Source: Alphaproteobacteria bacterium (GTDB taxonomy: Bacteria; Pseudomonadota; Alphaproteobacteria; Rickettsiales; UBA8987). From it: a stretch of 64,000 bases of DNA. A program made the position numbers and the translations under genes. How positions within the stretch are numbered: the first letter of the stretch is position 1; every line of letters begins with the position of its first letter. Below, in pieces: positions 17,685-35,869 of the stretch. The notes beneath the pieces are model-generated. The model saw nothing but the letters and a program-made list of their open reading frames with translations. It was not told the DNA's origin and made no database searches. Location: assembly GCA_031426355.1 (NCBI GenBank), contig JANPLD010000045.1, positions 11,121 to 75,120 on the forward strand, given 5' to 3'.

Positions 17685-17729
17685 TGGTGGGATCGAGAGG
17701 ATTCAAACCTCCGGCCTACGGTTTAGGAA
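17685..17729 (-). mobile_element. Site A: 3' half of tRNA-Arg(CCU), allele with CGATCCC acceptor (attR-like)
   Basis: Minus strand TTCCTAAACCGTAGGCCGGAGGTTTGAATCCTCTCGATCCCACCA; no 5' half upstream. Confidence 0.9.
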
Positions 17730-17850
17730 TTTAGATAATTCATTTATCCTAACCTATCAGGCTTTTGCCTAATCTATCATAAGCAACTGAAATGTAAAAC
17801 CAATCTTTTGCACCAGTTTTCTTCGGTCTTTACCGAGTACCCTGTATAAA

Positions 17851-17902
17851 AGTTACTATACAGTTACTAATGCAAAGTTACTAACCGGAGAAAAGTTACT
17901 AA
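17851..17902. repeat. Four AGTTACTA repeats (arm-type sites of site A)
   Basis: AGTTACTA at 17851, 17862, 17876, 17894. Confidence 0.85.
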
Positions 17903-17940
17903 TTGTACTTATCTACTTACTTTTTAGGCAAATCTTAAGA

Positions 17941-18207
17941 TTAATTTCTAATTCTAGTGTTATCTATTTCTATTGCTTTTGGTCTAAGTGGTTCCTGATA
18001 AGTACCTTCTGCCACTCTTTTTGCTATATCCTTTCCTCTTATTGCAACTTCCTCACTAGTTAAGGATATCTCGGGTGGCTCAATATTTATACCTTTATAA
18101 AAGATTATCTTGAAAGAATATAATTCATAAAATTGAAATAAAGCCTTTAAGTATGCAGGATCTTTTTCTCCGTTAGCATATCCACTTGCTTCTGGCTTTT
18201 CTGGCAT
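17941..18207 (-). CDS. Hypothetical protein, possibly C-terminal fragment
   Basis: 88 aa ORF enclosed by a 42-bp direct repeat. Confidence 0.4.
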   Translation of the reverse strand: MPEKPEASGYANGEKDPAYLKALFQFYELYSFKIIFYKGINIEPPEISLTSEEVAIRGKDIAKRVAEGTYQEPLRPKAIEIDNTRIRN

Positions 18208-18217
18208 AGGAGTTACC

Positions 18218-18259
18218 CAGTTACTAATGTAAAGTTACTAACCGGAGAAAAGTTACTAA
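18218..18259. repeat. Second copy of 42-bp arm repeat (17861-17902), one mismatch
   Basis: CAGTTACTAATG(C/T)AAAGTTACTAACCGGAGAAAAGTTACTAA. Confidence 0.92.
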
Positions 18260-18270
18260 ATACTAATATA

Positions 18271-19293
18271 TTATAATCCCAAGCCATCAGTTAGGTTATT
18301 TATTTTGCCTTTCATAACAGGGCTATATAATTTATTTACCAAAGAAGGTAGTAAAGCGTCATTGGTTACTAACTCAGATAAATTATCTCCATCCTGCTTT
18401 AAGGTATCTAAAATAGTGTTGATATTTTTTGCTATTTCAGGTGTCCAGTTTACTGCAGGATTATCCGTCATAATGCTTGAAAACCCTACTATTTCTTGAT
18501 TCTCTGCTTTAAATCCTTTTAAAAATTTTATTTCTTCAGGAGTTAAGCCTTCATTATCAAAATCTTTTAATTTCTTTATGGTATTAGCGATTTCAGTATA
18601 TTCATCGCAGCTTAGCTGTTTTTTTGGATCTAAAATTGCATTTTCTATTTTGGGTTTACGATCCATATTTTTATAGCCGCCTCTATTCGGCAGCCCTAAT
18701 TCCTTTGCAAAGCCATCGGTAAAATCTGTAACATTTTCTTCAATTCTCTGAAAACTAGCAGTAGTTTCTCTAAGGATTTTTTCCGCACTATCTTTATCAA
18801 CGCTGAACTGCTTTGCGTAGTTTTCATAGTCTCCAAATATGCCGGAAGCATGAGTAAGCTCATGAAAAAAACGCTCTATAGATGGTGAATAACTAACTTC
18901 AGGGTCAGAGGTATTTTGAGCAACCTCCTGATTAAAATTTACTACTACATAACGTATATTTTTGTGTCCAATATCTTGTGGGCGCAAAATTCCTATTCCA
19001 TGCTTTTCAGCTATTTCCTCCCGTGCAAATGGCGTTATTCCAACTGGTATGAAATCAAAGCGGTTCCTTATTTCCGGGCTGGCCTGGACACTTTCATTGA
19101 ATCCAAAAACTTCCAATTTTTCATTCCTGCCTGTACCATCATTAAATAATGCATTGTCCTTAATGTACTTAAATACATCTTGACCTTTATCGCTATTTTC
19201 AATGGTGCATAACCATGCTTCCAAAGCATCTCTTACTTCTGGTATAGCGCAATTTATAGTTATTACATCTTCCCAGTTTATTTTATCCGGCAT
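18271..19293 (-). CDS. Hypothetical protein with HExxH zinc-metallopeptidase motif
   Basis: 340 aa; FFHELTHASG followed by EENVTDFTDGFAKELG. Confidence 0.6.
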   Translation of the reverse strand: MPDKINWEDVITINCAIPEVRDALEAWLCTIENSDKGQDVFKYIKDNALFNDGTGRNEKLEVFGFNESVQASPEIRNRFDFIPVGITPFAREEIAEKHGIGILRPQDIGHKNIRYVVVNFNQEVAQNTSDPEVSYSPSIERFFHELTHASGIFGDYENYAKQFSVDKDSAEKILRETTASFQRIEENVTDFTDGFAKELGLPNRGGYKNMDRKPKIENAILDPKKQLSCDEYTEIANTIKKLKDFDNEGLTPEEIKFLKGFKAENQEIVGFSSIMTDNPAVNWTPEIAKNINTILDTLKQDGDNLSELVTNDALLPSLVNKLYSPVMKGKINNLTDGLGL

Positions 19294-19335
19294 AATTCAA
19301 ATATTATATTGGAATGTAAGTTTACCACAAAAAGG

Positions 19336-19350
19336 TTAATATGCAGTTAA
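19336..19350 (-). promoter_or_regulatory. CtrA-type box TTAA-N7-TTAAC
   Basis: Minus strand TTAActgcataTTAAC, 43 bp upstream of the 340 aa ORF. Confidence 0.5.
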
Positions 19351-19585
19351 TCTTAAGGTTTATTTGTATATGTTATTCAAATTGATCATGCCAATTAGGT
19401 TATAATTTCTTTATTTATCACCACATAGCCTGCTGTATCATAACCCACTGAAACGTAGTAATATTCCCTTGTTTTTGCCTCTGGATGCAATATCTGGTGG
19501 CTATAAGGAATTATTATAAATTATGCCGGTAGCACATATTACAAAGAAGTTTGTTGATGGAATTAAATATCAGGGGAAGCAGGAG

Positions 19586-33991: not shown

Positions 33992-34130
33992 AAGTAAGGC
34001 CTTAGTAAGGCTGCGGTTTAAAAAGGTGCTGGCCTTGTATAAAAAAAGATTTGGAGATTTTTCGGTTTAACTCCGTTTAGAGCTAGAGTTTAAAAAGGCC
34101 ATATAAGCTTTTAAAATCAGAGGCTTGGTT
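33992..34130. repeat. Arm W copy; AGTAAGG pair within 33992-34010
   Basis: Inverted homolog of 27360-27499. Confidence 0.92.
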
Positions 34131-34175
34131 TTCCTAAACCGTAGGCCGGATGTTCGAATCATCTCGTTCCCACCA
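34131..34175 (+). mobile_element. Site F: 3' half of tRNA-Arg(CCU), CGTTCCC allele (attR-like)
   Basis: TTCCTAAACCGTAGGCCGGATGTTCGAATCATCTCGTTCCCACCA. Confidence 0.92.
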
Positions 34176-34195
34176 TTATGATTTTTAAAATAGTA

Positions 34196-35401
34196 TTAAT
34201 TCCTCTGTTTTCCAGGAGTTTTAAGTTTTTCAGCTTCTTTTTGAGCTTGTTCTATTACGTCCGCTTCATATCTGGCCTTTAAAGGAGCAACATCAAGAAA
34301 ATAAAAGATTATATTTTTTTCAATAGAAGCAATTGTCGGTTTATAACCCGATTCCATTGCTACTTTAAACGCGCTAAATTTGAATTGCTCTTGCTCTTCG
34401 CTATTGAATGGTAGTTTTAGTGCTTCTCCTAAATAATATTCTGCTGTTTTGGCACATGCATTTATATGATATGTTAATGGCAAAGTAATTTTATCATCAT
34501 TGAATGCGATAGAGATTCTTCCTGCGGTAATACAATCATAAGGAAATCCGCCTTCAGTGATTTTTCCACCCACCTCTTGGTCTATCATCATAACAGCTAC
34601 CATTGAGTTGTTATCTGCTATTTTAGATTTATATTTCTTGTATGGCTCAGGAAGACTTATGGAATGGTTTGTTGTTTCAATATTTGTGTTACCAAATACT
34701 ATTCCAACATGTACAGGAAGATTCTTTGCATCCATATAGAATTTAAAATTCAGCTTATCACTTGGAAATAGGTCGTTTCCATTTTTATCCTGCGCCTGTA
34801 TAAGAAGCCCTGCATATAAAGAGGCCATAGTATTACAATCAGCAGCTCCTTTATTTTTTTGAGTAGGGTCAGATATACCTTTGTAAAAAGCCGGGTTATT
34901 TGCCACGGTTCTGGTGTGCTCAGACATAAATAAATTTGCTGCAAATAATGATTCCTTCTGCTCTTGGCTTAAACCTTCTAAGCCTTTTCCTGCACTAATT
35001 TTCCATTGGCCATATGATGATTCCTGCTGACCAAATTTTATTTTCTTTTTAGTGTATGTTGCAGGGTCATTACGAACCAAGTTATATTCATCAACCATCT
35101 TATCCCAGTTATCGTAAAAATTTTTTCTTTCTTCAGGAGTATCTAAATTTTCAAAGCCTTTATATTTCCCAGAGTTATAAATTAAAATAGGTACTAACCC
35201 ACCTTCTTTAATAAGGTCACTAACTGCATTCCTGTAATTTAAAAGATCAGCCTTAGTGCCAGACTTAAGATATTCTAAAGCTTGCTCATATTTTTCCTCA
35301 AAATTCTCCGGTGTCTTTAAGATTCTGTTCGTATTAAAAGAAATATCTTGCAAAAGTTCTGGATTTTTCTTTAACAACTCTTGAATTATTTCTTTAGACA
35401 T
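34196..35401 (-). CDS. Hypothetical protein with transglutaminase-like Cys-His core
   Basis: KGAADCNTMASLYAGLL ... PVHVGIVFG...NIETT. Confidence 0.55.
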   Translation of the reverse strand: MSKEIIQELLKKNPELLQDISFNTNRILKTPENFEEKYEQALEYLKSGTKADLLNYRNAVSDLIKEGGLVPILIYNSGKYKGFENLDTPEERKNFYDNWDKMVDEYNLVRNDPATYTKKKIKFGQQESSYGQWKISAGKGLEGLSQEQKESLFAANLFMSEHTRTVANNPAFYKGISDPTQKNKGAADCNTMASLYAGLLIQAQDKNGNDLFPSDKLNFKFYMDAKNLPVHVGIVFGNTNIETTNHSISLPEPYKKYKSKIADNNSMVAVMMIDQEVGGKITEGGFPYDCITAGRISIAFNDDKITLPLTYHINACAKTAEYYLGEALKLPFNSEEQEQFKFSAFKVAMESGYKPTIASIEKNIIFYFLDVAPLKARYEADVIEQAQKEAEKLKTPGKQRN

Positions 35402-35456
35402 AATTTCTGCTTATTCTGATTGGTTTATTACTGCACTATAATGTAACACAAAATCA

Positions 35457-35471
35457 TTAAGAAACTATTAA
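35457..35471. promoter_or_regulatory. CtrA-type box TTAA-N7-TTAA
   Basis: TTAAgaaactaTTAA upstream of the 401 aa ORF. Confidence 0.4.
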
Positions 35472-35526
35472 GATTAACAAAATAATAGGGATAAAGTATG
35501 ATTTTAAATACCGGAAATACACTATA

Positions 35527-35642
35527 AAAGTTACTATAGAGTTACTAATCAAAAAATTGCCTGATTTTGCGATGATGAGATAAGGAATAAGCCCTTATAA
35601 TGATTGAATAATCTAAAAATCTGAACTTTTTGGACTCACTGA
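35527..35642 (-). repeat. Arm X copy; GTTACTA at 35530 and 35541
   Basis: Inverted homolog of 20133-20249. Confidence 0.9.
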
Positions 35643-35681
35643 TTAGGAAACCGACGCTCTATCCAGCTGAGCTACGACCCC
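35643..35681 (-). mobile_element. Site G: 5' half of tRNA-Arg(CCU), GGGGTCG allele (attL-like)
   Basis: Minus strand GGGGTCGTAGCTCAGCTGGATAGAGCGTCGGTTTCCTAA. Confidence 0.92.
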
Positions 35682-35738
35682 AATAGATTTGGATTCGGAA
35701 AATATACTAAACTTTTAAAAATGCAATTCTTTAGAAAA

Positions 35739-35830
35739 CCTTACTATAGCCTTACTTTTGGGTTTTCTGTATTGGATTTAAGGCAGAATAATCAGTAAAT
35801 ACAAATTGTTATAAAATTTCAACCCACTTA
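35739..35830 (-). repeat. Arm Z; CCTTACT at 35739 and 35750
   Basis: CCTTACTATAGCCTTACTT. Confidence 0.75.
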
Positions 35831-35869
35831 TTAGGAAACCGCCACTCTATCCAGCTGAGCTACGCCCCG
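35831..35869 (-). mobile_element. Site H: 5' half of tRNA-Arg(CCU), CGGGGCG allele, next to core gene gpsA
   Basis: Minus strand CGGGGCGTAGCTCAGCTGGATAGAGTGGCGGTTTCCTAA. Confidence 0.9.

Follow-up and report, generated by a model that had tools for sequence, protein, structure and literature searches.

Decayed half-genes of tRNA-Arg(CCU) in a Rickettsiales genome as probable scars of non-restoring tyrosine-integrase islands

Between 17.7 and 35.9 kb of the DNA stretch analysed here (64,000 nt of contig JANPLD010000045.1 from a Rickettsiales metagenome-assembled genome, in the following the window), one intact tRNA-Arg(CCU) gene lies among 5' halves, 3' halves and a short relic of the same gene, all of them broken at the anticodon loop. 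We consider it likely that this region is a decayed pile-up of attachment (att) scars from lambda/P4-type tyrosine-integrase islands, which targeted tRNA-Arg(CCU) without restoring it, and that the order of events includes at least four or five integrations. The initial annotation of this DNA had proposed an integron/shufflon-like cassette system; we read the array as a fossil, which would by now be static, and not as an integron or shufflon.

In the proposed mechanism, the attachment site of the element (attP) and the host gene would have only the anticodon loop in common (7 nt plus 1-2 nt). Strand exchange within the loop would then generate an attL, consisting of 5' half, loop and P' arm, and an attR, consisting of P arm, loop and 3' half, neither of which would be a tRNA gene. 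A complete tRNA of the same kind carried by the element, canonically 40-60 nt past the P' arm-type sites, would compensate for the loss and would in turn serve as the target of the next element, whereby scars would accumulate.

Halved tRNA genes, recombination arms and integrase relics

ARAGORN detected a single tRNA-Arg(CCU) gene, site E, which is also the sole CCU gene in the 2.25-Mb draft assembly of 136 contigs, with two tRNA-Arg(UCU) genes present elsewhere in the same assembly. Besides the intact E, the region contains three 5' halves (C, G and H), three 3' halves (A, D and F) and one 16-nt relic (I), all listed in Table 1. Read in the sense of the tRNA, each piece retains the whole heptamer TTCCTAA, breaks exactly at the loop and continues into a non-tRNA arm. 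The 5' and 3' halves overlap solely in this heptamer (plus 1-2 nt), and all four 5' pieces (C, G, H and I) end at one identical base past the loop. A BLAST search with tRNA-Arg(CCU) across the whole genome recovered the known copies, with E-values of 1e-11 to 1e-18, and no further ones, and an Rfam scan of 17.0-36.5 kb returned E as the sole RNA gene. The heptamer by itself is not enriched (19 observed vs 17.5 expected), and its occurrence at 27889 was rejected as a chance match. The inventory given by the initial annotation is therefore confirmed by ARAGORN, BLAST and the reading of the individual sites, together with its placement of the crossover within the 7-nt loop and its observation that the junctions are not rebuilt, the 5' halves being joined to foreign arms.

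The flanking arms are conserved, as had also been noticed earlier, with 86.5% identity over 156 nt between C and G (each taken as 5' half with its arm) and 90% over 199 nt between D and F (each as arm with its 3' half). Direct 7-mer pairs at a spacing of 11 nt were found in the arms of the six sites A, C, D, F, G and H. In C and G the pair is TAGTAAC, located ~96-107 nt past the loop, and four copies of the same 7-mer occur 123-172 nt ahead of the loop in A. The pair AGTAAGG is located ~75-92 nt past the loop in H and ~122-139 nt ahead of the loop in D and F. Across the 2.25 Mb of the genome, such pairs occur at these six sites and in one additional place, a chance match inside a coding region of another contig. 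The arms can be recognised as putative attP arms carrying arm-type binding sites, as in integrases of the lambda/P4 type.

Based on the 7-mer pairs, the scars fall into two groups, alpha with C and G (attL) plus A (attR), and beta with H (attL) plus D and F (attR), and these two specificities are in accordance with the repeated integration that had been assumed before. Covariation in the acceptor stems agrees with the alpha pairing of C and G with A, since GGGGTCG of C and G pairs perfectly with CGATCCC of A, and the GGGGACG of E pairs with CGTTCCC in the 3' half of D, E and F. A pairing by conservation alone, which combined the C/G arms and the D/F arms into one attP, was rejected because the repeats pair C and G with A, and H with D and F.

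The alpha arms have one additional feature: the core is repeated in inverted form, as TTAGGA (TCCTAA reverse-complemented), at 17-18 nt from the loop in the P arm of A (17745-17752) and in the P' arm of C (20149-20157), and likewise behind G, in each case inside the common motif GTTAGGAT..GA(A/T)TATC. It may represent an extra protein-binding site.

A profile search of 17.6-36 kb gave no match to PF00589, and no intact integrase remains between the sites, in agreement with the initial annotation; just two C-terminal relics are left, and no integrase could be linked to the alpha arms. The relics were revealed solely by the integrase of G017, an uncultured Rickettsiales metagenome-assembled genome, whereas a tblastn search of the region with the 11 integrases of the genome itself found no relic. 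The G017 integrase is an intact homologue of 405 amino acids, which contains PF00589 together with the arm-binding domain PF13356 and is followed downstream by an AlpA-like helix-turn-helix gene and then a VapE-like primase gene. In the G017 element, GTAAGGT pairs are present in the att arms, which are very similar to the P' arm of H and to the P arms at D and F; the promoter-like stretch past the arm of H resembles that upstream of the element-borne tRNA in G017. Judged by relic 1, the beta integrase would be ~82% identical to that of this Rickettsiales relative over the surviving C-terminus. A full-length homologue elsewhere in the genome, as the initial annotation had envisaged, was not found at E<=1e-40. 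About ten other tyrosine recombinase genes are present in the genome; the sole integrase gene in the window (57199-58524) adjoins tRNA-Glu and is part of a classical island.

At site I, a unit composed of the integrase C-terminus, a PLD-family nuclease gene and the tRNA 5' half is unbroken (24615->24382). A second copy of that unit is split, its integrase part being on the minus strand, from 22953 to 22800, whereas the PLD part plus C is on the plus strand and starts from 19816. The comparison of the contiguous unit with the split copy shows that a block of ~19.81-22.80 kb has been inverted, so that at least one of the inversions suggested by the initial annotation is documented. Undoing it joins relic 2 to the PLD fragment and makes C and A a direct pair of alpha attL and attR ~5 kb apart, the halves of which form a perfect tRNA. 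The breakpoints lie outside the att cores, and no inverted repeat was found at 19.81/22.80 kb; by these features, the inversion at ~19.8-22.8 kb appears as an ordinary one and not as site-specific at the cores. Moreover, E, F and the plus-strand genes of 31.6-34.2 kb also face the opposite way, and this orientation would require a second rearrangement around E; the G017 element has a comparable flip of its tRNA-bearing end. Reversing a loop-to-loop inversion between G and E, which would have produced a neat mini-element, was dropped because the resulting tRNA has a U5-U68 mismatch.

Intact elements in relatives and the origin of allele E

To place the relics in context, 80 loci around homologues of the G017 integrase, from named genomes, were surveyed, many of them from cultured Rhodobacterales. 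The layout that recurs in these loci begins with a 5' fragment, the loop and a P' arm containing a repeat pair. A short spacer resembling a promoter then leads to an intact tRNA of the same kind, followed by cargo, an antisense integrase gene, a P arm with the same pair, the loop and a 3' fragment. In its full form, this layout was found for tRNA-Arg, tRNA-Met and tRNA-Thr. In 30 of the 80 loci, the 5' fragment lies 85-220 nt upstream of the intact tRNA, and in 14 of these 30 a 3' fragment spanning positions 31-76 is additionally present at the opposite end; a 3' fragment alone was present in ten loci. The fragments overlap at tRNA positions 29/31-40. An identical 7-mer pair was present in both arms in seven out of 11 loci tested, and the pair differs among loci. 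In G015 and G016, which belong to the same genus as G017, the tRNA is located at the same flank and has the orientation of the split halves in G017. The initial annotation had proposed a scan of related genomes for half-tRNA and arm motifs; such motifs occur in the layout near relic-integrase homologues. The alpha arm pattern, searched in 400 genomes of the order, gave chance-level matches only.

Seven loci were informative for the origin of the fragments. When both flanking fragments are combined, all 12 of the 12 acceptor and anticodon stem pairs are formed, whereas chimeras of either fragment with the intact tRNA reach just 8-11 of 12. The fragments thus covary with each other and not with the intact tRNA, which identifies them as what is left of the former host gene, and the intact tRNA as that of the element; accordingly, the crossover in these relatives rebuilds no gene, and the element supplies a replacement tRNA. 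The initial annotation had suggested that loss of the gene is tolerated through tRNA-Arg(UCU), an assumption that is unneeded, given that the elements of relatives carry a replacement tRNA and that E is intact.

A variant was observed at locus L021 (G030:C7, 9514-9895), where two tandem units of 151 nt, each composed of 5' half, loop and arm and representing two alleles, precede an intact tRNA-Arg(CCU), whose 3' end is overlapped in antisense by the end of an open reading frame (ORF) for a large serine recombinase of 514 amino acids. No repeat pair was seen in the L021 arms, and the locus may belong to another kind of element that makes use of this loop.

The intact gene E itself differs from its counterparts in the genus. 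Its anticodon stem reads GCGGT/ACCGT, compared with TCAGA/TCTGA in the tRNA-Arg(CCU) of two same-genus genomes (G001 and G002), in which this gene adjoins typA, in G002 in convergent orientation. In the present genome (window 38072-40708), only 6 nt separate typA from the TauE-family gene behind it, with no tRNA there. The foreign stem allele and the empty typA site together indicate that the only tRNA-Arg(CCU) of the organism is an import, and the native gene was apparently lost once this import had taken its place. Showing the empty site by synteny with the same-genus genomes was abandoned, as these are too divergent (gpsA, 70-72% amino-acid identity) and rearranged. The pilin-like gene within the inverted block (21916-22818, plus strand, with N-terminal methylation motif) has three paralogues upstream of gpsA in G002 (L026, 11575-13739), and the 'island' may in part consist of old chromosomal DNA trapped between scars.

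Course of events and competing explanations

Applied to the window, the proposed mechanism would read as follows. H, its P' arm, the promoter-like spacer and then G would represent the canonical layout of a beta element, G being the front of a tRNA that was later split by an alpha element. E would be the surviving functional tRNA, the integrase genes would have been deleted since, and the inversion at ~19.8-22.8 kb plus at least one more rearrangement around E would account for sites facing both ways. A complete tRNA of the same isotype on the element is found for the beta type and for the relatives, as seen from the covariation, from the arm of H followed by G and from the foreign allele of E.

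Several observations weigh against this explanation. The scars are unbalanced, with two attL versus one attR for alpha and one attL versus two attR for beta, and in tRNA sense the order H, G, D, A interleaves rather than nests, so that further deletions or rearrangements must be assumed. No tRNA lies behind either alpha P' arm (C and G), and the ~5-kb element from C to A obtained by undoing the inversion is also without one; alpha elements, if they carried a replacement tRNA at all, may have lost it later, or they may have split the gene without replacing it. Ahead of E the beta P' arm is absent, and E-F is consequently not a full canonical layout. Furthermore, D, E and F agree at 100% in their 3' halves, yet the arms are only 90% identical, for which separate integrations into the same allele would be the sole account we can offer. 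Finally, D, E and F have an exact repeat of 46-49 nt in common, and the D/E/F joins are those given by the contig.

An extension of this explanation, which we regard as doubtful, views the tRNA-Arg(CCU) locus as a contested, self-renewing landing pad, at which beta elements would destroy the gene and replace it with a copy that becomes the next target, and alpha elements would destroy it while relying on the spare copies of others. A recombinase encoded elsewhere would still act in trans on units without an integrase (ORF401, the TIR segment and the MHYT phosphorelay), moving or flipping them. If true, this would amount to cassette capture on tRNA halves and would drive the horizontal turnover of tRNA alleles in Rickettsiales.

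An active platform, on which integrase-less cassettes are captured at the loop and shuffled or inverted by a tyrosine recombinase encoded elsewhere, with the half sites still serving for recombination, is unlikely in our judgement. The short units between sites (E-F 998 bp, F-G 1.5 kb) indeed lack an integrase, the sites occur in both orientations, making recombinase-driven inversion formally possible, the arm-type pairs are still intact in all six arms, and the additional tyrosine recombinase genes of the genome would be at hand. However, the region has no PF00589 match and the genome no beta-integrase homologue at the threshold given above, the chance-level result for the alpha arm in the order provides no sign of a circulating cassette family, and ORF401 is an orphan of this organism only. 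In addition, the arm copies are just ~87-90% identical (a difference of 10-13%), the dead halves have acquired point mutations, and the documented inversion breaks outside the att cores. The same observations are at odds with the integron/shufflon-like system of the initial annotation: for an integron, attC hairpins are absent as well as PF00589, and for a shufflon, there is no recombinase, the inverted copies are 87-90% identical and the breakpoints lie off the sites.

Ordinary tRNA-restoring islands in tandem, with the 5'-half junctions arising secondarily through illegitimate deletion or homologous recombination, appear still less likely. E and F form a 49-nt direct repeat over the 3' half, like a classical attL/attR pair, a 3' fragment only is seen in 10 of the 80 surveyed loci, and 3' fragments far exceed the alternative in the Islander database (3760 vs 159, PMC4383910). 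On the other hand, random deletions would not let four 5' halves end at the identical base, the arm-type pairs in the arms of C, G and H are also those of the P arms at the 3' halves, and the layout recurs in 30 independent loci with covarying flanking fragments. A classical restoring island, with an attP that contains the 3' part beyond the core, is thus compatible with E/F alone, as C, G, H and I are joined to foreign arms.

Misassembly, a possibility already raised with the initial annotation, would mean that the metagenome contig was misjoined at the repeated tRNA pieces, which we judge very unlikely. The assembly is a draft, and the exact repeat in D, E and F makes short-read graphs ambiguous. 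As a cross-check we used the Logan contigs of run SRR20217183, assembled independently at k=31, which match the window at 100% over 7941-20128, 33151-34159 and 34149-36069. The joins at A, at the 5' side of C and at F, G and H are present in these contigs and are therefore not peculiar to this assembly, whereas the contigs stop, as expected, at the 49-nt exact repeat common to E and F. Moreover, A, C, G, H and I differ from each other and from E, hence they are not collapsible repeats, and the half-site junctions sit within unique sequence. One Logan contig (L126) ends at 20128, 30 nt into the 5' half of C (20098-20128). This stop suggests that the sample may hold another tRNA matching C from position 6 on, probably from a second organism or strain in the same metagenome sample, with a near-identical tRNA-Arg(CCU) that differs at position 5.

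A functional split tRNA joined at the RNA level, or an anticodon-loop intron, is next to impossible: the halves do meet exactly at the anticodon loop as in such genes, but arm complementarity does not exceed shuffled controls (z -1.9 to +1.0), the Rfam scan detected no intron or other family besides E, which likewise ruled out a group I intron, and the halves lie on both strands, kilobases apart, with the whole loop in both kinds.

Cargo, known systems and implications

For ORF401, no homologues were found, and it is known from this organism alone; the orphan ORFs gave no match to Pfam or NCBIfam. The TIR-domain ORF adjoining the P arm of F matches TIR proteins of Thoeris and retron systems only weakly, below the cut-off, and a second, overlapping ORF in 33178-33928 (minus strand) extends to the CCA end of tRNA E. 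Immediately upstream of tRNA E (32535-33033, plus strand), an ORF of 93 amino acids overlaps by 11 nt an ORF of 75 amino acids of the XRE-type helix-turn-helix family, and the pair looks like toxin-antitoxin island cargo of the HigB/HigA kind. Between D and I (24693-25843, minus strand), a CigR-family-like small protein (below cut-off) is encoded beside an OmpA-domain lipoprotein with glycine zipper. Outside the array, at 56918-58524, tRNA-Glu(UUC) is followed by the gene for an intact integrase of 442 amino acids, and 19 nt of the tRNA 3' end are repeated at 77625 of the contig (C45), ~2.5 kb past the window end; this island of ~9.6 kb is an ordinary one that restores the 3' end.

Table 1 Coordinates of tRNA-Arg(CCU) pieces, arms, relics and neighbouring features in the window.
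Feature	Position	Strand	Description
Site A	17685-17729	-	Loop TTCCTAA + 3' half, allele 'a' (acceptor strand CGATCCC); attR of alpha-type element; pairs perfectly with C and G 5' halves
Site C	20094-20132	+	5' half (allele c) + loop, then arm; attL of alpha-type element
Site I	24367-24382	-	Last 9 nt of 5' half (AGCGTCGGT) + TTCCTAA; then third kind of arm + ORF409
Site D	27315-27359	-	Loop + 3' half, same as that of E; attR of beta-type element
Site E	33101-33177	+	Intact tRNA-Arg(CCU); allele foreign to genus
Site F	34131-34175	+	Loop + 3' half, same as that of E; attR of beta-type element
Site G	35643-35681	-	5' half (allele c) + loop, then arm; front of tRNA formerly behind the arm of H
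Site H	35831-35869	-	Outermost 5' half, mutated at positions 1, 5 and 26; + loop; adjoins gpsA; attL of beta-type element
Alpha P arm (A)	17730-17902	-	Four TAGTAAC at 17852-17895
Second TAGTAAC cluster	18220-18252		Three copies; ORF88 (17941-18207) between both clusters
Alpha P' arm (C)	20133-20249	+	TAGTAAC at 20228 and 20239; homology to the arm of G stops just after the pair
Beta P arm (D)	27360-27513	-	AGTAAGG at 27481 and 27492; abuts 3' end of MHYT histidine-kinase gene (27563-31606)
Beta P arm (F)	33979-34130	+	AGTAAGG at 33993 and 34004
Alpha P' arm (G)	35526-35642	-	TAGTAAC at 35530 and 35541
Beta P' arm (H)	35682-35830	-	AGTAAGG at 35739 and 35750; then promoter-like TTGCAT...TAGTATAT
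Integrase C-terminal relic 1	24485-24616	-	82% identity to G017 integrase
Integrase C-terminal relic 2	22822-23004	-	62% identity; residues 339-399 of G017 integrase
Inverted block	19810-22800		PLD fragment, site C + P' arm, two small ORFs, pilin-like gene
PLD-family nuclease gene, C-terminal fragment	19840-20067	+	PF13091, E 2.8e-14; directly 5' of C
Unit remains formerly preceding I	24382-24664	-	Beta P-arm fragment 24627-24664 (one AGTAAGG at 24640), relic 1, 64-nt PLD relic 24382-24445
Segment E-F	33178-33978	-	TIR-domain ORF 33368-33928, antisense, where the integrase sits in intact relatives
ORF401	34196-35401	-	Orphan cargo gene directly behind the P' arm of G

The initial annotation knew of no precedent for this form of integration, a statement that is outdated, as non-reconstructing integration with an element-borne tRNA was published in 2024 (PMC10865867). 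In this tRNA-dependent lysogeny, observed in actinobacteriophages (Fionnbharth, Cluster L and others), a common core of 10 bp is used, the tRNA is not reconstructed, the phage tRNA complements the loss and arm-type pairs flank the core (Guerrero-Bustamante & Hatfull, mBio 2024, PMC10865867). The elements described here resemble it in the arm-type pairs around the core and, as far as the intact G017 homologue shows, in a lambda-like tyrosine integrase with arm-binding domain. Unlike those phages, they are small islands or P4-like satellites (in G017 with integrase, AlpA-like helix-turn-helix protein and VapE-like primase) of an alphaproteobacterial host, their predicted replacement tRNA is canonically located directly behind the P' arm, and in the window several generations appear on top of one another, in decayed and rearranged form.

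With integrons and shufflons, the region has in common that several sites of the same kind separate short gene units, and with shufflons also both orientations; it differs in the lack of an adjacent dedicated recombinase (IntI, Rci), of attC hairpins, of a common promoter and of alternative protein ends, and its sites are diverged scars of two specificities. Sublocation classes for islands in tRNA genes were reportedly described by Williams in 2002. Classical islands as collected in Islander (PMC4383910) also have a tyrosine integrase and a crossover in the 7-nt loop; the displaced 3' fragment is found at their far end, and they may form tandem arrays at one tRNA gene. In these, however, the identity of attP continues through the 3' half and the gene is rebuilt at attL, whereas here a 5' half plus foreign arm is the rule.

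While the kind of integration has been known since 2024, the host group, the element type and the stacked, decayed form are new, and a full-text literature search found no description of the alphaproteobacterial layout. The phage strategy of 'destroy and replace' at tRNA genes is hereby extended to small genomic islands of Alphaproteobacteria, and multi-layer arrays of half-tRNAs can be explained without a new recombination system. The most useful by-product is the wide occurrence of the layout of 5' fragment, P' arm and replacement tRNA in this class. Its signature, a 5' piece of the tRNA located 85-220 nt ahead of the functional gene, is of practical relevance, since island finders that consider 3' fragments only would misplace the left end of such elements. 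Taken together, these islands offer a concrete path for the horizontal replacement of tRNA alleles.

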